Assembly: GCA_965199715.1 (NCBI GenBank)
Contig: CBDATA010000001.1
Coordinates: 128,001 to 192,000 of the forward strand
Direction: 5' to 3'
DNA from: Vicinamibacteria bacterium
GTDB lineage: Bacteria > Acidobacteriota > Vicinamibacteria > Marinacidobacterales > Marinacidobacteraceae
DNA length: 64,000 nt
How positions within the stretch are numbered: position 1 is the stretch's first letter; each line of letters starts with the position of its first letter. Positions 55,813-63,752 of this stretch are shown here, piece after piece. Position numbers and translations under genes: made by a program. The notes under the pieces were generated by a model, which was not told the origin of the DNA, searched no databases, and was given only the letters and a program-made list of their open reading frames with translations.

Positions 55813-55886
55813 TGGCTGGGAAGCAGGGACTCGAACCCCGATTCCACGGTCCAGAGCCGTGTGTCCTGCCATTGGACGACTTCCCA
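55813..55886 (-). tRNA. tRNA-Gln (anticodon CTG), CCA encoded
   Basis: TGGGAAGTCGTCCAATGGCAGGACACACGGCT-CTG-GACCGTGGAATCGGGGTTCGAGTCCCTGCTTCCCAGCCA. Confidence 0.96.
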
Positions 55887-55978
55887 GTGGCGCGGCAAGG
55901 TATGCAGGATAACAGGAATGAGACCGCCGGAGCAGACGCGGAAGCGACTTCGCGGGCGCGACCAACTCTTGCTTTCGC

Positions 55979-56012
55979 TATGTCCGAATGTGACGCATTC
56001 AGCCGCTAGCGT
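55979..56012 (+). promoter_or_regulatory. Candidate WYL-regulator operator TATGTC-N7-GACGCA with downstream -10 TAGCGT
   Basis: Imperfect palindrome at 55979-55997 covers the -35 position of a TAGCGT -10 (56007-56012) upstream of the WYL gene. Confidence 0.5.
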
Positions 56013-56054
56013 CCCTCTCGTTCCCGCTCAGGAGCGTTGCCCGGAGGGCGTCCC

Positions 56055-57065
56055 ATGAACGACAAGCCAAGACACGAGCGCCTGAAGAAACTCATCGAGC
56101 TGGCGATCAGGCTCCAGCGGCCGCACGGAATGACGCTCGACGAGATCCAGCGCGACTTCGAGGTCAAGCGGCGCACCGCCGAACGCATGCGGGCCACGGT
56201 CGCCGACGCCTTCGGGGAGCTGGAGCGCGTCGAGTCCTGGGAGACCAAGCGCCGCTGGCGGCTTCGCTCGACGACGGTCCACCACCTCATCCTGATCTCC
56301 CCGGGGGAGCTCGCCGAACTGGAGACCGCGGCGAGGGCCGCGGAGACGTCCAGCCTCGAGGATCGCGCGAAGGCGCTGCGCAGCATCGCGGAGAAGGTCC
56401 ACGCGGCTCTCCGCCCCGAGTCGCGCCGCCGCGTCGAGTCCGATCTGGGGGCGCTCGTGCAGGCGGAGGGAGTCGCCGTGCAGCCCGGGCCGAGGATCCG
56501 CCTGCCGCCCCAGATGATCCACTCGCTCCGGGAGGCGATCGTCGGCCGCCGCTGGGCGACGTTCAAGTACTTCTCGCAGGACGGCAAGATGCGGGAGCCG
56601 CGGGTGCGCCCCCTCGGGATCCTGTACGGGCGCCGGCCCTTCCTCGTCGCGTCGGGCGAGTGGGGCACCGTGCCGTGGTTGTGGCGGCTCCAGAACGTCC
56701 GCAACATCCACGTCGGCGACGAGACTTTCCCCGATCCGGACTTCGACCTGGCCGACTACGCGAGCCATTCGTTCGGCGTGTACCAAGAGGAGCCGGTGGA
56801 CGTCGTGCTGCGGTTCGGCGCCAGCGTGGACGCGGACGCCGCCGACTTCCTGTTCCACGTGAACCAGACCACCGAGACGAACGCGGACGGATCGCTCACG
56901 GTCCGGTTCCGCGCCGGCGGCATGATCGAGATGTGCCACCACCTGTTCACGTGGGGCGACAGCGTCACGATCGAACAGCCGAAGGAGCTGCGGGAGCAGC
57001 TTGCGAAGATGGCCGCCCAGGTGGCCGCCCACCACGGCCCGCCCCGCCCACACCCGCAGGCGTAG
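56055..57065 (+). CDS. HTH-WYL-WCX transcriptional regulator, DriD-like
   Basis: MTLDEI..FEVKRRTAERMR, LVQAE.VAVQPGPR, PLGILYG, SFGVY, FH..Q....DGSLTVRFRAGGMIEMCHHLFTWGD. Closely resembles Caulobacter DriD as recalled. Confidence 0.9.
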   Translation: MNDKPRHERLKKLIELAIRLQRPHGMTLDEIQRDFEVKRRTAERMRATVADAFGELERVESWETKRRWRLRSTTVHHLILISPGELAELETAARAAETSSLEDRAKALRSIAEKVHAALRPESRRRVESDLGALVQAEGVAVQPGPRIRLPPQMIHSLREAIVGRRWATFKYFSQDGKMREPRVRPLGILYGRRPFLVASGEWGTVPWLWRLQNVRNIHVGDETFPDPDFDLADYASHSFGVYQEEPVDVVLRFGASVDADAADFLFHVNQTTETNADGSLTVRFRAGGMIEMCHHLFTWGDSVTIEQPKELREQLAKMAAQVAAHHGPPRPHPQA

Positions 57066-57072
57066 GCGACCG

Positions 57073-57846
57073 ATGTCCCCGATCCGCTCGCGTGAGCTGC
57101 GCCCGATGGCCCGCCGGAGCTCCGCTCGGCGGGGGAAGGCGCGTCCGAAACGGCGTCCGTCTCGGCCCTTCGATCCCGGCCGGCGCCCCCCTTCCGGCGC
57201 GGAGGTTCCCGTCGGAGGCGTCGCGCCGACGCGCCCCGGCCGGGCGCGCGCCTCCCGGGGCGGAGGCCTCAACCTGTCTCGGGAACAAGTCGAAGGCGTC
57301 ATCGGGGAGCTGAACAAGGCGGCGAAGTGGCGGGTGACGCTGACGTTCTTGCCGAAGATGGCGCAAGCCCGATGGCGCGTGGCGCTCGCTTGGGTGGACG
57401 CGGCGATGCCCTGCGCGCCGATGCGGTTCCCGCGCTGGTATCGCTGGATCGGCCTGGGCGCGCTCTCGTACACGCCCATCCGCCGTGGGCGAACGCGACG
57501 ACTCGGAGCACCGATGTCTCACGACGACGAAATCGTGCCCGAACGTACCGTCTGGCACTGGCTTGCCCACCGGGAAGCGCCGCTCCGATCGATTCCAGAA
57601 CGCGGTCGAGCGGCCATTCGGGAATGGGCCCGCCGCGCGCGACTCAAGCGGCGCACGGGGAGCAAGTCCCTGTACCGCACGCTCAACAATGCGATCGACC
57701 AACACGAGAGGCCCCGCCACTTCGCCGACCGGCATGACCTCGGCACGGCGCCGGCCGACGTCGCGGGTTTCTTCGACTTCTACGAGGCGCGGAAGGAGCG
57801 GCTGCGGCCGAAGCTGCACGACCGGCTCGTGGATCCCGCCGCCTGA
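57073..57846 (+). CDS. Hypothetical, probably mosaic/remnant ORF
   Basis: Open frame after the WYL gene; low-complexity Arg/Pro N-terminus; internal GGAG+ATG at 57514; tail FFDFYEARKERLRPKL. Confidence 0.4.
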   Translation: MSPIRSRELRPMARRSSARRGKARPKRRPSRPFDPGRRPPSGAEVPVGGVAPTRPGRARASRGGGLNLSREQVEGVIGELNKAAKWRVTLTFLPKMAQARWRVALAWVDAAMPCAPMRFPRWYRWIGLGALSYTPIRRGRTRRLGAPMSHDDEIVPERTVWHWLAHREAPLRSIPERGRAAIREWARRARLKRRTGSKSLYRTLNNAIDQHERPRHFADRHDLGTAPADVAGFFDFYEARKERLRPKLHDRLVDPAA

Positions 57847-57913
57847 CCGCCCCGAACCCGCCAGGGCGTGTACGATCCCGGCATTCGGCTGGCGCCGGCG
57901 CGGCCCTGCCGCC

Positions 57914-58000
57914 GGAGAGGTGCTGGAGTGGCTGAACAGGGCTGCCTGCTAAGCAGTTGCACGGGGAACCGTGCCGAGGGTTCGAATCCCTCCCTCTCCG
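57914..58000 (+). tRNA. tRNA-Ser (anticodon GCT); CCA not encoded (followed by CCG)
   Basis: Acceptor GGAGAGG/CCTCTCC, anticodon arm GCTGC-CT-GCT-AA-GCAGT, variable arm GCACGG/CCGTGC, T arm GAGGG-TTCGAAT-CCCTC. Confidence 0.95.
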
Positions 58001-60831
58001 CCGGGCCGGCCGCCGTCCTCCTCCTGCTCGCCCTCGCCGCGGCCCCAGCCGCCGCCCAGCCCACCGGGGGCGCGACCGGGGTCGTGACCGACGAGACCGG
58101 CGGCGTCCTTCCCGGAGCGCGGGTCTCGCTCGTCCTCGCCGAGCGCGGAGTCCTCCGCGAGCAGGTCGCCGGACCGACGGGTCGGTTCGGGTTCGCCGGG
58201 CTCCAGCCGGGGGCGTGGACCGTGAGCGCGTCGCTCGCCGGCTTCCGGGACGCGACCCCCGCCGAGGTGGTCGTCGCGGCCGGTTCGGTGACCGAGGTGA
58301 ACCTGCGCCTCTCGATCGCCGGGGTCGCCGAGAGCGTCACCGCGGTGCGGGCGCTCGACCTGCGGGGCGGCGGCGTCCGCGAGACGGTGGACGCGCCGAT
58401 GCTCGAGAACCTCCCCAACACGCGCGACGTCTGGACTGTTCTCGAGCAGACGCCGGGCGTGATGATGGACAAGGTCAACGTGGGCGGGGCCGAGAGCGGC
58501 CAGCAGTCGCTCATGTCCGCCGCCGGGTCGGCGTGGACCCAGAACCAGTACTACCTGAACGGGGTCAACGTGACCGACCCCGGGGCGATGGGCGCGACGA
58601 TCACCTACTTCTCCTACGACAGCTTCGAGGAGGTCGAGGTCTCGACCGCCGGCCACCGCGCCGAAATCCAGACGCCGGGGGTGTTCCTGAACGTCGTGAC
58701 CCGTCGCGGCGACAACCGCTTCCAGGGGAGCGCCAGCTTCTTCTACGAGCACGAGCGCTTCCAGGCCGAGAACCTCGACGACGGGCTGCGCGCCCGGGGC
58801 GTGGGACAGGCGAACCGGCTGAAGCGGCTGCTGGACGGAAGCGCCGACTTGGGCGGCCCGATCCGCCGGGATCGGGCGTGGTTCTACTTCAACTACTCCC
58901 GCTTCCGGGTGGAGCCGTTCCTCCCCGGCTTCTTCCTCGAGAACGGCGAACCCGGAGTGGATCTCACCGAGCTGGAGAACGTGCTCGGGCGGGCCAGCGT
59001 CCGGATCGCCGAAGGCCACGAGATCGGGGCGTTCTACTACCGCAACCGGAAGTTCCGGCCGTATCGGAACGCGAGCCTGTTCCGCCCCCGGCCCGAGACG
59101 ACGCTCCACCAGGACTCGACCATGACGCTGGGGCAGCTCTCGTGGTCCGGGGTCTTCGGCGAATCCACGCTCGCCGAGGCGCGCGTCAGCGTCGTGGACC
59201 TCTACTTCCCCTACGGAGCGCAGCCCGACCGGGAGCCCGAGGTCTCGCGCTGGGAGCTGAACACCGGGGTCTGGTACGGCGGCTCCGGCGCCAACACGAT
59301 CTACGAGCGCGACCGCTGGCAGGCGAGCGGCAGCGTGACCGCCTTCCGGGACGGGCTCTTCGGCGGGACCAACGAGTTCAAGATCGGCTTCGAGGCCACG
59401 AGGAACCCGGGCCGCACGACCCACGACCTCCACGAGGGGATCGTCTATGTCCACGACCGGGTCCGGCCCATCGAGGTCACGCTCTACAGCGACCCGGTCG
59501 CGACCAGGAACGTCACCCGCAACGTCGGCTTCTACGCCCAGGACACGCTCGTGCGCGGGCCGCTCATCCTCGAGGCCGGGCTGCGGGCGGACTGGTGGGA
59601 CGCGGGCTTCCCCGACCAGTCGCAGGAGGCCGGCCGGTGGAGCGAAGCCTTCGCGGCGTTCGGCGTTCCGCTGCGGACCGAGGGCCGGTCGGGGCTCGCG
59701 TCGTGGTTCGGGATCGCTCCGCGCCTCGGGGTCCACTACCGGCTGACCGACGACGGGCGGACGTGGATCCGGGGGAGCGCCGGGCGCTACCTCCACCAGA
59801 TGGGCCTCGCGATCCCCGGCTTCGGCAACCCGAACGCCCGCGCCTCGGCCCGGTTCCGGCTCGACGATCGCAACTTCAACCGCCTGCTCGACCCGGGCGA
59901 GGCGGACCTCGCAAGCCCGCTCAGCGTCTTCATCCCGGTGCGCAATGAGATCGATCCCGACCTGATGCAGCCGCGCACCGACGAGTTGACGCTCGGGATC
60001 CACCGGGAGCTCGGGCGCGGCGTCACCGTCGGCCTCACCGGAATTCTGCGGGAGGAGCGGAATCTCATCGAGGACGTGGACGTGGGGGTTCCGGCGAGCG
60101 CGTGGCGGGCGACCGACCACTTCGACCCCGGGCGCGACTTCGTCCGGGGCACCGACGACGACGTTCCGCTCACGCTGTGGCTCCAGGACCCGGCGACGCT
60201 CGGCCAGAGCCGCTTCCGCCTGACGAACCCCGGGCTCGACGCGAGCTACCGGGGGCTGATCCTCGAGGCGCGAAGGCGCTACGCGGGCGGCTGGCAGCTT
60301 CTCGCGTCGGTGACGGTAAGCCGCTCCACCGGCTGGCTCCCCGGCCCCGGCGACCAGGTGGACGAGGGGACCGGGTTTCCCGGGGAGCTCCTGAACACGC
60401 CGAACCACGGCGACCTCCACCAGGGCCGGACGTTCTGGGACCGGCCCTTCATCGCCCGGCTCTCGGGGAGCCGCCGCCTGCGCTGGGGCCTTTCGGCGGC
60501 GGGGTCGCTGCGGGCGCACTCGGGCTGGCCCAACTACCGCTCGGTGATCTTCACCCAGACCCTCGACGGCCGGCCGTTGCCCCAGGGCAGCACCGAGGTG
60601 ATCGTGGAGCCGCCCGGAGCCGCCCGCTCGCCCGCGGTCCCGCTCCTCGACTTCCGGCTGGATCACCGGCTGGAACTCGGCGGAGCCGAGATCGCGACGT
60701 TCCTCGATCTGTTCAACGCGCTCAACCTGAACAACGTCGTCGGCGAAGGCTCCCGCGACGACGCCTTCGGGGCGGTGGTCGGGATCCTGCCGCCGCGGGT
60801 CGCCCGGATCGGGATGCGCCTGCGCTTCTGA
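57928..60831 (+). CDS. TonB-dependent receptor, Oar-like, with N-terminal carboxypeptidase-regulatory domain; start overlaps tRNA-Ser
   Basis: AVLLLLALAAAPAAA-Q signal, GVVTDETGGVLPGA, ENLPNTRD, YYLNGVNVTDP, DLGGPI, APRLG; C-terminal RIGMRLRF. Start codon uncertain. Confidence 0.85.
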   Translation: MAEQGCLLSSCTGNRAEGSNPSLSAGPAAVLLLLALAAAPAAAQPTGGATGVVTDETGGVLPGARVSLVLAERGVLREQVAGPTGRFGFAGLQPGAWTVSASLAGFRDATPAEVVVAAGSVTEVNLRLSIAGVAESVTAVRALDLRGGGVRETVDAPMLENLPNTRDVWTVLEQTPGVMMDKVNVGGAESGQQSLMSAAGSAWTQNQYYLNGVNVTDPGAMGATITYFSYDSFEEVEVSTAGHRAEIQTPGVFLNVVTRRGDNRFQGSASFFYEHERFQAENLDDGLRARGVGQANRLKRLLDGSADLGGPIRRDRAWFYFNYSRFRVEPFLPGFFLENGEPGVDLTELENVLGRASVRIAEGHEIGAFYYRNRKFRPYRNASLFRPRPETTLHQDSTMTLGQLSWSGVFGESTLAEARVSVVDLYFPYGAQPDREPEVSRWELNTGVWYGGSGANTIYERDRWQASGSVTAFRDGLFGGTNEFKIGFEATRNPGRTTHDLHEGIVYVHDRVRPIEVTLYSDPVATRNVTRNVGFYAQDTLVRGPLILEAGLRADWWDAGFPDQSQEAGRWSEAFAAFGVPLRTEGRSGLASWFGIAPRLGVHYRLTDDGRTWIRGSAGRYLHQMGLAIPGFGNPNARASARFRLDDRNFNRLLDPGEADLASPLSVFIPVRNEIDPDLMQPRTDELTLGIHRELGRGVTVGLTGILREERNLIEDVDVGVPASAWRATDHFDPGRDFVRGTDDDVPLTLWLQDPATLGQSRFRLTNPGLDASYRGLILEARRRYAGGWQLLASVTVSRSTGWLPGPGDQVDEGTGFPGELLNTPNHGDLHQGRTFWDRPFIARLSGSRRLRWGLSAAGSLRAHSGWPNYRSVIFTQTLDGRPLPQGSTEVIVEPPGAARSPAVPLLDFRLDHRLELGGAEIATFLDLFNALNLNNVVGEGSRDDAFGAVVGILPPRVARIGMRLRF

Positions 60832-61577
60832 TGGGCGACTGGGATCCGGACGGCTACGCGAAGTTCCGCGAGTTTCGGGCGCGTTCGGCGCGGGATCCGA
60901 TCGCCCGCATCCCGCTCCGGCGCGCGTCGTTCGTCTGCGATCTCGGCTGCGGAACCGGCGAGATCACGAGCGTGCTCGCCGAGCGGTTCCCCGAGGCGCG
61001 GGTGGTCGGGATCGACGCGTCGCCGGCGATGCTCGCCCGCGCCCCGAAAGGGCCGCGTCGAATGGGTCCGCGCCGACGTCGCGACATGGAAGCCCTACCA
61101 GCGGCCCGACCTCATCTTCTCGAACGGGGAGCTCCACTGGCTCGACCGCCACGAGGAGCTGTTTCCGCGGCTCATGGGCATGCTGGCGCCGGGCGGCCAG
61201 CTCGCGGTCCAGATGCCGCTCGGACGCGGGCAGCCGGCCCCCGACCTCATGCTGGAGACGCTCGGCGACCACCCGCTCAGGGCCGCCGCCGCACGCGACC
61301 GGGTGCTCGATCCCGCGGCCTACCACGAGCTGCTCGCGCCGTTCCGCCGGGATCTGGATGTCTGGGAGACCGAGCGCCACCACCGGCTCGAGGGCGAGGA
61401 ACCGGACTTCGAGTGGGTGCGGGCGACCGCGCTGCGCCCGATCCTGAACGGCCTCGCAGGCGCCGAACGCGAGAGGTTCGTCGCCGAGTGCCGGGAGCGG
61501 CTTCGCGCCGCCGATCCGGGGGGGCCGACGGGGTCACCGGGTTCCGGTTCCGGCGGCTCTTTCTCATCGCGCGCTGA
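60831..61577 (+). pseudogene. tam: trans-aconitate 2-methyltransferase with two compensating frameshifts
   Basis: WDPDGY..DLGCGTG..GIDASPAML in one frame; VEWVRADVATW..DLIFSN..LHW..GGQLAVQMP..DVWET in the +1 frame; FRRLFLIAR* back in the first frame. Confidence 0.82.
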
Positions 61578-62502
61578 CGACCGCCCGGACCAGCTCCGGA
61601 TCCAACCGGTCGGCGGCCTCCTCTCGAACCCGCCGCGCCAGCGCCTCCAGCGCGGATCGGTCGGGGCTGGCGAACCGCACGCCGGCCTCCCGCAGCGCCT
61701 CGAGCGCGTCTTCGTCCTGCCGCCGGTACTCCGCCCGCTCCGCGTCGATGGACGCCCGCGCCGCCCGAAGGATCGCCGCTTGTTCGGCCGGCGCGAGCCC
61801 GTCGAAGAAGCGGCGGCTCATCACCAGCGGCTGGACCAAGTACATCCAGCCGATCTCGGACCAGTACGGCGCGACCTCGTAGAACCGCTTCGAGAGGTAG
61901 TTCGAGCGGGCCGCCTCGGCGCCGTCGATCACCCCCTGCTCCAGCGCGGTGTACACCTCGCCGTAGGCCATCGGCAGCGGACTCGCCCCGAACGCCGAGA
62001 ACGCCCTCAGGTGGAGCGGGTTCTCCATGGTTCGGATCTTGAGCCCGGCGAGGTCCTCGGTCCGCTCGACGGCGCGGTTCGTGGTCATCAGGTGCCGCAG
62101 CCCGGCCTCGAAGTACCCCAGCAGCACGAGGCCCCGCTCGCGCAGCGGCTCCTCGAACCGCCGACCGACCGGGCCGTCGAGCACCGAGTAGAGGTGCGGG
62201 CGATCCCGGAACAGGTACGGCAGGTCGAACACCAGCATGTCGGGGACGAAGGTCGCGAGCGGGGCGTTCGCGACCGCGGCGACCTGCACCGCACCGAGGA
62301 TCGCGAGCTCGATGACGTCGCGTTCCGAGCCGAGCGCGTTGTTCGGGTGGACCTCCACGCGCATCCCGGATTGCGCGAGCTCGTCGCGGAAGACTTCGAG
62401 CCCGCGGACCGCCGGCTCGTTCGCGGCGGCGCTGGAGCTCGCCCGAATCGCCGGCGCGTCCCCGGTGCACCCGGCGAGCAGCAGCGGGGCGAGCCAGCGC
62501 AT
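61564..62502 (-). CDS. dctP: TRAP transporter substrate-binding protein (lipoprotein)
   Basis: MRWLAPLLLAGC lipobox; DLPYLF, DLAGLKIR and PMAYGEVYTALEQGVIDG motifs. Confidence 0.9.
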   Translation of the reverse strand: MRWLAPLLLAGCTGDAPAIRASSSAAANEPAVRGLEVFRDELAQSGMRVEVHPNNALGSERDVIELAILGAVQVAAVANAPLATFVPDMLVFDLPYLFRDRPHLYSVLDGPVGRRFEEPLRERGLVLLGYFEAGLRHLMTTNRAVERTEDLAGLKIRTMENPLHLRAFSAFGASPLPMAYGEVYTALEQGVIDGAEAARSNYLSKRFYEVAPYWSEIGWMYLVQPLVMSRRFFDGLAPAEQAAILRAARASIDAERAEYRRQDEDALEALREAGVRFASPDRSALEALARRVREEAADRLDPELVRAVVSAR

Positions 62503-63752
62503 CACAGCATCCCAAGCCAGCGGGGAAGCGCGGTCGCGGCGCCCGGAACCACAGTGATCCCGAGCAGCACCGCGACCATGGCGAGGACCGGGCGGACGGT
62601 CCAGACGGCCACCTCGCCGACGCTGCGCTTCGCCACGGTGCACGCCACGAAGAGCGTTGCGCCGTAGGGCGGCGTGACCATGCCGATGCACAGGTTCACC
62701 GACGCCAGCACCCCGAAGTGCACCGGATCGACTCCCGCCTGAATCGCCAGCGGGAACAGGATCGGCATGATGACGATGATCGCGGAGATGCTCTCCATGA
62801 ACATCCCGGCGACGATCAGGACCGCGTTCGCCGCGAGGAGGAACCAAAGCGCGTCCGAGGCGAACGCCGCCGCGTGGCCGCCGAGCTGCTCGGGAACCCG
62901 ACCGGCGGCGAGGAGCCACGCGAGCAGGAACGCGCTGGTCGCGACGAAGAGCACGACCGCCGAACGAAGCGCCGCGCCGACCAGAAGCTCGCGCAGCCAG
63001 CCGGGCCGCAGCTTCCCCCCGGCGAGGCCGAAGACGAGCCCGTAGGCCACGGCGACCCCCGCGGCTTCCGTCGCGGTGAAGACGCCCGAGAGGACGCCCC
63101 CGAGCACGACCGTTGGCATCCCGAGCGCGGGCAGCGCGCCGAGGACCGCCTGGCCGAGCGAACCCTCGGCCGGCGGAGCGGTCTCGTGGCCGCGCCGGAG
63201 ACTGATCCCGACGAGCGCCGCCGCCATGAGGAACCCGGGGACGATCCCGCCGACGAAGAGCGCCGCGATCGAGGTTCCGGTCACGTAGCCCATCACGATC
63301 ATGATGATGCTGGGCGGGATGATCGGGCCGAGCGCTCCCCCCGCCGCCTGGAGCGCCGTCGCGAATCCGACCGGGTAGCCGCGCTCGCGCATCGCCGGAA
63401 TCATCATCGTGCCGACCGCGGCGGTGCTGGCGCTGGAGCTTCCGGAGACGCTCGCGAAGAACATCGACGAGACCACCGACGCGATCGGAAGCCCGCCCCG
63501 AAGCCGCCCGAACAGCGTGACGACCCGGCGCGAGATCCCCGAGGCGTTCATGAGCTCGCCGGCGAGGATGAACAGCGGCACGGCCATGAGCGCCCACGAG
63601 TTGAGCGCCGCGAACGCGCGCTGTGGCATGAGTTCGAGGGGCAGCCGCCCGTCGGCGAGGATCGCCGCCATCCCGCTGAGGCCGATCGCGAACGCGACCG
63701 GCACGCCCAGCGCGAGCAGCAGGACGAGACTGACGAGAAGCGCCGGGATCAC
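62502..63752 (-). CDS. dctM: TRAP transporter large permease
   Basis: AVPLFILAGELMN, SGSSSA, IIPPSI, FTATEA, DPVHFG and TPPYG motifs. Confidence 0.93.
   Translation of the reverse strand: MIPALLVSLVLLLALGVPVAFAIGLSGMAAILADGRLPLELMPQRAFAALNSWALMAVPLFILAGELMNASGISRRVVTLFGRLRGGLPIASVVSSMFFASVSGSSSASTAAVGTMMIPAMRERGYPVGFATALQAAGGALGPIIPPSIIMIVMGYVTGTSIAALFVGGIVPGFLMAAALVGISLRRGHETAPPAEGSLGQAVLGALPALGMPTVVLGGVLSGVFTATEAAGVAVAYGLVFGLAGGKLRPGWLRELLVGAALRSAVVLFVATSAFLLAWLLAAGRVPEQLGGHAAAFASDALWFLLAANAVLIVAGMFMESISAIIVIMPILFPLAIQAGVDPVHFGVLASVNLCIGMVTPPYGATLFVACTVAKRSVGEVAVWTVRPVLAMVAVLLGITVVPGAATALPRWLGML

Follow-up and report, generated by a model that had tools for sequence, protein, structure and literature searches.

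The closest precedent for the locus described here is tRNA-Sec (selC), which in Alphaproteobacteria is nested in the selB open reading frame (ORF); in the study of that case, which is bioinformatic only, tRNA processing and protein expression are proposed as alternatives (Mukai 2021, PMC8124441). The same source cites a tRNA-Lys within cox1 of Armadillidium vulgare mitochondria, and it was the sole bacterial precedent among the literature matches listed for tRNA/ORF overlap. Here we describe a tRNA-Ser(GCU) gene that runs in frame into the gene for a TonB-dependent-type outer-membrane receptor in 64,000 nucleotides of the genome of a Vicinamibacteria bacterium (GenBank:GCA_965199715.1, contig CBDATA010000001.1, positions 128,001 to 192,000 of the forward strand); this whole stretch is called the window, and coordinates refer to it unless a contig is named. 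Judging from sequence comparison, it is probable (roughly 0.6) that translation of the receptor starts at a GUG in the D-loop of the unprocessed tRNA precursor, in competition with folding and processing of the tRNA. Two other kinds of known system are relevant: transcripts joining a tRNA to an mRNA occur in the Escherichia coli tufB operon and as dicistronic tRNA-mRNA transcripts in plants, and Shine-Dalgarno (SD) sequences are sequestered in RNA thermometers, riboswitch expression platforms and the thrS operator.

Like selC/selB, the receptor locus has a complete functional tRNA on the same strand in or overlapping a bacterial ORF and conserved in relatives, the evidence being sequence-based in both, and the proposed logic, by which tRNA folding and processing compete with translation of the mRNA as alternatives, is common to the two. 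In that precedent (PMC8124441), selC is found at the 3′ end of its ORF, to which it adds a C-terminal extension, and its tRNA and protein are functionally linked through Sec. At the receptor locus the tRNA is instead at the 5′ end, where it would provide a ribosome-binding site and a start codon along with the first 24 codons of a signal peptide that is cleaved off. The receptor locus also differs in pairing a housekeeping tRNA with an unrelated exported protein, in its interplay with tRNA-targeting islands, and in that the ORF, counted from the D-loop GTG, overlaps tRNA nt 15–87 and not the whole tRNA. As in mitochondrial overlaps and tRNA punctuation, one transcript would yield tRNA and/or mRNA, with excision defining the mRNA ends; in contrast to those compact organelle genomes, the genomes of this family are 2.7–4.9 Mb, a free-living size, and excision would remove a start codon instead of exposing one. 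The tufB and plant co-transcripts resemble the locus in that a tRNA and a downstream protein gene would share one promoter, but their spacers bear the mRNA's own start signals, whereas the receptor locus has no spacer and no separate start. By analogy with the SD-sequestering RNAs, the acceptor stem, whose 3′ strand CCCUCUCC resembles an anti-SD, would occlude the SD and gate initiation, although here the sequestering structure is an essential tRNA that is cut out and no dedicated regulatory element. Finally, as with islands that carry P4-type tyrosine integrases and target tRNAs, the 3′ end of this same tRNA is an attachment site in relatives such as G018; unlike such loci, the window has no island at tRNA-Ser(GCU).

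The locus is made up as follows.
57868..57870, + strand: upstream in-frame GTG, the first start codon of the mechanically called ORF, directly 5′ of a -10-like hexamer
57871..57876, + strand: -10-like hexamer TACGAT, a candidate promoter element upstream of tRNA and receptor
57914..58000, + strand: tRNA-Ser(GCU), class II, ending at the discriminator G; CCA is not encoded (CCG comes next)
57917..57922, + strand: GAGGTG, Shine-Dalgarno-like, tRNA nt 4–9 (5′ strand of the acceptor stem plus nt 8–9)
57928..57930, + strand: in-frame GTG in the D-loop (tRNA nt 15–17), the proposed initiation codon
57928..58056, + strand: predicted signal peptide of 43 codons (24 tRNA-encoded codons, the junction and an h/c region ending in ...AVLLLLALAAAPAAA), with cleavage before the Q at 58057, from translation and hydropathy
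57928..60831, + strand: TonB-dependent-type outer-membrane receptor, 967 codons from the D-loop GTG, with CarboxypepD_reg, Plug and beta-barrel domains

ARAGORN called a tRNA-Ser(gct) at 57914..58002 (+), and Rfam RF00005 matched 57914..58000 with 56.7 bits against a gathering score of 29; the gene has the cloverleaf, long variable arm and GCU anticodon of a class II tRNA-Ser, and the alignment of loci shows a compensatory GC to AU change in the variable-arm stem. It is the sole GCU-anticodon tRNA among the 54 predicted in the window's genome (G000; 2.66 Mb in two contigs, 71.5% GC), with a second copy possible since the assembly is 93% complete. As AGC/AGT make up 25 of the receptor's 57 Ser codons and there is a single tRNA-Ser(GCU), the tRNA must be matured as well as translated through, if it is so translated. 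The gene thus has the properties of a functional tRNA, the sole decoder of AGC/AGU, and not those of a remnant. Its missing CCA is common in G000, where about 21 of the 54 tRNAs encode CCA (tally by eye).

The mechanical ORF (57868..60831, +) is open for 987 codons through the whole tRNA, with a G+C content at third codon positions (GC3) of 0.94, and its product matches PF13620 (CarboxypepD_reg, 4.1e-15), PF07715 (Plug, 4.4e-07) and PF25183 (OMP_b-brl_4, 1.1e-25), all above cut-offs, a domain content that assigns it to the CarboxypepD_reg-type TonB-dependent outer-membrane receptors. Only one of the three frames of the tRNA is open, the others stopping at a TAA in the anticodon loop (nt 37–39) and a TGA in the D-loop (nt 20–22). 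The tRNA lies wholly inside the ORF only if counting begins at 57868; with the favoured start at 57928, nt 15–87 would be coding. An open frame through a tRNA is unremarkable by itself in a genome of this GC content: G000 has 24 tRNA/frame combinations in which the frame continues for 150 codons or more past the tRNA. What stands out is a conserved signal peptide that starts ahead of any available start codon, an arrangement that relatives keep. Beyond the discriminator base the frame reads AGPAAVLLLLALAAAPAAA and then QPTGG; it contains a Sec h-region with a small-x-small cleavage motif (AVLLLLALAAAPAAA, then Q), the mean hydropathy reaching 3.2 over residues 28–30, and this pattern is conserved in 28/28 orthologues. 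The first in-frame ATG, GTG or TTG past the tRNA end is at 58084, 81 nt downstream, beyond both QPTGG and the cleavage site. A preliminary description of this DNA had reported the GAGGTG at 57917–57922, the GTG at 57928, the TACGAT at 57871, the GTG at 57868, the open frame and the lack of an intervening start, all of which proved correct by direct reading.

For comparison, 28 species genomes of the family, from 7 genera and all metagenome-assembled genomes (MAGs), were used, and the 5′ junction could be read in 28/28. Each has one receptor orthologue, of 72–84% identity, as against near 33% for paralogues. The junctions fall into the following classes.
Abutting, 19/28: G000, G001, G004–G010, G012, G014, G017, G019–G022, G024, G041 and G042
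Island-interrupted, 5/28: G013, G016, G018, G023 and G043 (all of genus g2), with only a 22-nt copy of the tRNA 3′ end before the receptor
Small insert, 1/28: G015, about 100 nt, flanked by a duplicated tRNA 3′ end
Spacer, 1/28: G003, 176 nt
Separated, 2/28: G002 (about 2.3 kb) and G011 (759 nt) between tRNA and receptor

The 19 abutting species span 7/7 genera, and in each of them the tRNA leads directly into the signal peptide in the frame used by the window, so that the check for an in-frame junction in relatives, which the preliminary description had called for, came out in its favour. All 19 loci use the open frame of the tRNA, with eight distinct junction lengths (53, 56, 77, 83, 86, 101, 125 and 137 nt) that are all 2 mod 3. 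The tRNA therefore lies on the coding strand, in a frame without stop that would be translated and that is the same in 19/28 species, and the in-frame junction is well supported at the level of the family. Relatives with a spacer and a normal ATG, which would have pointed to a local deletion or misassembly in the window, do exist as a minority (the spacer of G003 and the 2.3-kb insert of G002), and both look derived.

The distribution of start codons points to the tRNA. If the region from the upstream stop or promoter down to the signal peptide is compared, no canonical start other than the D-loop GTG is common to 19/19 abutting loci. From the tRNA end to the cleavage site, 11 of the 19 abutting genomes have no ATG, GTG or TTG, and in a twelfth the sole candidate is a TTG halfway through the h-region; when CTG was allowed as well, eight of the 19, the window included, were still without a start that leaves a workable signal peptide. 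Four abutting loci (L006, L008, L009 and L033) have an in-frame TGA whose last base is 10 nt from tRNA nt 1 on the upstream side; nothing further upstream can serve, and the D-loop GTG is the only canonical start there before the signal peptide. By contrast, 9/9 genomes in which the receptor is separated from the tRNA or out of frame with it have a canonical start (7 ATG, 1 GTG and 1 TTG) upstream of a basic n-region, as against 2/19 abutting genomes (L011, GTG; L024, TTG); Fisher's test gave p = 8e-6 for this contrast, a value that is descriptive only, the species not being independent. In genus g2, the QPTGG codons vary at third positions only (pi 0, 0 and 0.47), and therefore translation begins upstream of 58057. 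The eight n-region codons in g2 had no third-position excess (0.27, 0.32 and 0.31) and are uninformative, and the absence of stops among about nine variable-loop variants (tally by eye) in the 19 abutting loci is not evidence of stop avoidance, since by a rough estimate chance would give this result in most cases.

Public protein clusters agree with this start as far as gene-finder predictions go: 33 of the 46 best inspected begin MAEQGCLLSSC..., that is, at the D-loop GTG, although such a search can show in-frame cases only. Six clusters (P0042–P0047) hold the orthologue as a protein of 918–919 aa that starts M(V)LD(A/G)TGG and has no signal peptide, which is likely an annotation artefact of a pipeline that forbids overlap between a coding sequence (CDS) and a tRNA. 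It would follow for annotation that such pipelines truncate the receptor to a signal-less form (the six clusters) and that others silently call the D-loop GTG (the 33 clusters).

The 16S rRNA 3′ tail of G000, ...GGATCACCTCCTTTCT (also given as ...CACCUCCUUUC), contains CACCUCC, and GAGGUG is a perfect 6-nt complement of its CACCUC. The distance from GAGGUG to GUG is 5 nt, or 7 nt when counted from the GGAGG-core position, so that the pair has the complementarity of at least 4–6 nt and the position 5–10 nt before an AUG, GUG or UUG that define an SD site. In 10 of 11 paralogous receptor genes of G000, GAGG or GGAGG stands 4–12 nt before the ATG, a spacing comparable to that of the D-loop site, which makes initiation from an SD the usual mode among these receptor genes in G000. 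The paralogues were used for this judgement because the genome-wide GGAGG-to-ATG spacing showed only a modest excess, at 6–10 nt, over coding periodicity. A spike at GAGG-N11-ATG in the same statistic was set aside, being explained by a CRISPR-like array; this very large array lies outside the window, on contig C1 of G000 from about 160.6 kb, with an 18-nt repeat word found 327 times on one strand at a period of 73–77 nt. All 11 paralogues inspected have ATG starts and ordinary short MR/MK signal peptides with a basic n-region.

Every family locus with a tRNA-Ser(GCU) has the same 5′ half of the gene, letter for letter, and so do six loci from two outgroup families; in the latter, an encoded CCA comes after the tRNA, then AT-rich DNA of unrelated sequence, and there is no receptor. 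Since GAGGTG and the D-loop GTG are present in these receptor-less outgroups, both pre-date the fusion and were co-opted. When the nascent RNA of 77 nt is folded in silico, a hairpin loop contains AGAGGUG (z +1.0), and in the fold of 150 nt it is paired in the acceptor stem (z -1.1); neither is more stable than shuffled sequences. A leader-trailer helix of the RNase III-type processing kind, seen in the window's 150-nt fold, was rejected, as RNAalifold found no conserved helix across the 19 loci and cognate leader and trailer duplexes had energies no better than shuffled trailers in 21/21 loci, consistent with chance pairing of GC-rich sequence. A weak hairpin 3′ of the tRNA (alignment columns 153–157 and 180–184) was mostly driven by genus g2 and was broken in 2–5 of the 19 sequences per pair.

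Upstream of the tRNA, TACCAT or TACGAT is found 33–38 nt before tRNA nt 1 in 21/21 loci keeping the full tRNA beside the receptor, and this conservation makes TACGAT a candidate promoter element of a tRNA/receptor transcript. A simple scan of 57500–58500 gave no full sigma-70 promoter, a terminator-like site at 57746–57763, upstream of the tRNA, and none between tRNA and receptor. The conserved hexamer and the lack of a terminator-like site between the two suggest one transcript. Four RNA-library runs of one metatranscriptome study had 67–83% of sampled words present, and two of their contigs bridge leader, tRNA and receptor (X1, 57849–58303; X4, 57803–58499). These contigs show neither transcription nor a co-transcript, tRNA, receptor and upstream region being at similar low depth; the depth of 155–363 at the tRNA bin comes from short conserved tRNA contigs of other organisms. 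It was also noticed that the 176-nt spacer of L007 (G003), which stays in frame with the tRNA and has no stop, carries a second TACCAT 13 nt before the receptor's ATG, which may be a separate promoter giving a very short or absent leader.

By this evidence, the following course of events may be proposed. The tRNA-Ser(GCU) gene and the receptor gene would form one transcription unit without a spacer, and the ribosome would start at GUG 57928, with GAGGUG as SD, on the precursor RNA before it is folded or processed. Together, the 24 tRNA-encoded codons and the junction would make up the n-region of a Sec signal peptide, one that is long and roughly neutral; the signal peptide would be removed before QPTGG, leaving the mature receptor unaffected. 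The 3′ acceptor strand, once transcribed, would pair with the SD and close the site in a kinetic competition, after which RNase P and 3′ processing would cut out the tRNA and end further initiation. The output of receptor would accordingly depend on how much tRNA precursor is made, which would also set its limit. An either/or switch, in which each transcript is processed or translated, as the preliminary description had it, and a sequential model, with excision of the tRNA only after a first ribosome has gone through, would fit equally well.

Several points weigh against initiation within the tRNA. The short positive n-region expected of a Sec signal peptide is missing in the window, where the n-region from the D-loop GTG has about 27 residues with one K/R against two D/E, is neutral to acidic and has no basic residue beside the h-region (most relatives have Arg residues there), and a signal peptide of 43 residues is atypical beside the short MR/MK leaders of the paralogues. 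The SD and GTG are ancestral features of the tRNA, shared with the outgroup families, with no sign of adaptation; the folded tRNA buries the SD in its 7-bp acceptor stem, and tRNA processing would cut the start away from the body of the message. The depth of the RNA-library contigs is flat at about 3–7, the upstream region included, so that they may be DNA carry-over. The argument from frame is weaker if the insertions and deletions all sit in a coding region that starts at the tRNA end by unrecognised means. Possible downstream starts (ATG, GTG or TTG) occur in seven abutting loci (L003, L011, L012, L020, L023, L024 and L032), and all genomes compared are MAGs.

There are also rival explanations. 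Translation might start downstream of the tRNA, at a CUG or near-cognate codon at the n/h boundary or leaderless on the processed 3′ trailer, the tRNA being merely co-transcribed. Co-transcripts of this sort are ordinary, as in the E. coli tufB operon, and an NTG is found at or near the n/h boundary in a number of loci (CTG in L005, L006, L008, L018 and L020; TTG in L003 and L032; GTG in L012; ATG in L020 and L023). Leaderless mRNAs arising by tRNA excision are moreover proposed in Mukai 2021 (PMC8124441). However, the eight abutting genomes that have no NTG giving a workable signal peptide include the window, the trailer begins CCG/CGC... and not AUG or GUG, and initiation at the n/h boundary would drop the basic n-region seen in 11/11 paralogues inspected; in L020 and L023 an in-frame Arg-rich stretch stands directly upstream of the ATG, and the canonical start in 9/9 separated genomes would be left unexplained. 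We regard a downstream start as unlikely. A start upstream of the tRNA, either at GTG 57868 or by read-through from inserted upstream genes, would place the whole tRNA inside the ORF, and in the window's genome the frame is indeed open from 57868, a 2-kb insert with same-strand ORFs lies upstream, and RNA-library contigs, though possibly DNA, cross 57849–57914. Yet GTG 57868 abuts the conserved -10-like hexamer, is not kept as a start in relatives, has no SD-like motif ahead of it and is probably not used, and in four relatives a stop codon interrupts the frame ahead of the tRNA; an upstream start is thus very improbable.

The preliminary description had offered, as its alternative, a recent deletion or insertion that left a dying gene, and the window's receptor might accordingly be a young unexpressed pseudogene without a 5′ end whose frame is open because a GC content of 71.5% makes stops rare. 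In favour of this, few junctions are as short as the window's (56 nt), its locus is the only one of the 19 abutting that lacks a basic residue 3′ of the tRNA, G000 has many long ORFs that arose by chance, and a truncated methyltransferase lies downstream. Against this stand the 987 open codons with a GC3 of 0.94, the same type of junction in 18 other species and a public cluster, P0024, that likewise has no basic residue. The ratio of nonsynonymous to synonymous substitutions (dN/dS; Nei-Gojobori, NG86), which the preliminary description had proposed to examine, was 0.12–0.29 across all computed pairs and 0.15–0.29 when the window's copy was paired with all relatives; three-way subtraction put the branch of the window's copy itself at about 0.17. 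A pair of copies with ordinary ATG starts gave 0.17, and the window's copy is no higher than such copies. With these values and the in-frame junction in 19/28 species and 7/7 genera, a dying gene is rejected for the family and unlikely for the window's copy, and the specific case of a young pseudogene has only a very slight chance of being right. An artefact of assembly, such as a chimera joined at the conserved tRNA, is suggested by nothing beyond the use of MAGs and is next to inconceivable, because the same junction occurs in single-contig long-read assemblies and in independent short-read assemblies from 19 species, and in 100%-identity contigs from four further runs. After comparison with 27 other species, a tRNA that supplies both SD and start, as first suggested in the preliminary description, is the best-supported explanation.

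The surroundings of the locus are partly shared with relatives, one tRNA serving as anchor.
55813..55886, - strand: tRNA-Gln(CTG), synteny anchor, divergent from tRNA-Ser(GCU)

In most relatives the order is tRNA-Ser(TGA), tRNA-Gln, tRNA-Ser(GCT) and receptor. The window has about 2 kb between tRNA-Gln(CTG, -) and tRNA-Ser(GCT, +) (55887–57860), as against about 100–300 nt in most relatives. This extra DNA includes an ORF with WYL and WCX domains (56037–57065, +; GC3 0.94) and a same-strand ORF at 57001–57846 in the receptor's frame, closed by a TGA at 57844–57846. Directly after the receptor stop, the decayed tam of the preliminary description was recognised again as a truncated methyltransferase remnant (about 60864–61100, +), in which only the first 38–61 profile positions of several SAM-methyltransferase families match. 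Further downstream, 61564–63752 (-) holds TRAP-type transporter genes for a DctP solute-binding protein and a DctM membrane component.

In G018, which is a single contig, the full tRNA is 22.8 kb from the receptor (C1:193738–216668; loci L055, L056 and L013). A tyrosine integrase with Arm-DNA-bind_3, Phage_int_M and Phage_integrase domains (P4-type) directly follows the tRNA, a 22-nt direct repeat of the tRNA 3′ end lies 22.8 kb away, and the intervening DNA is of lower GC. By these signs the element is an integrated island, with the tRNA as attL and the repeat as attR. The sequence GCGCCGCCGG directly 3′ of the tRNA is conserved at the nucleotide level and is possibly part of the att site. 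In all five island-bearing genomes (G018 and those with loci L014, L016, L017 and L034), an in-frame ATG, in one case also a GTG, precedes the TCG-AAT-CCC of the att repeat by exactly 6 codons. The right end of the island thus carries an in-frame start, which gives the receptor a canonical start again once the island has split it from the tRNA. As the island ends are homologous and share motifs, they represent few independent events, maybe one or two. In L015 (G015), about 110 nt after the tRNA, a short insert is bordered by a direct repeat of 21 nt that copies the tRNA 3′ end and trailer. The insert puts the full tRNA out of frame and brings in a GTG start (MKTTLSAAPP...), and it resembles what an element would leave behind on excision or decay.

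Taken as a whole, an essential housekeeping tRNA would double as the initiation region and first 24 codons of the receptor, its precursor being open to ribosomes only for a brief time, before the acceptor stem forms and the tRNA is excised, so that receptor synthesis would be a one-shot read-out of tRNA transcription; the arrangement would have been kept since the origin of the family, with the right ends of islands giving a replacement in-frame start. We hold this combined picture tentatively, at somewhat short of even odds. If true, it would be the first canonical bacterial tRNA gene to supply SD, start codon and coding sequence for an unrelated protein, and the 5′-end counterpart of the selB/selC nesting, itself unproven. 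The family would then offer a natural system in which to study 1) ribosome loading versus tRNA folding and RNase P or 3′ processing on one nascent RNA, 2) the tolerance of signal peptides for long, arbitrary n-regions, and 3) how tRNA-targeting islands handle a downstream gene that needs the tRNA for its start.

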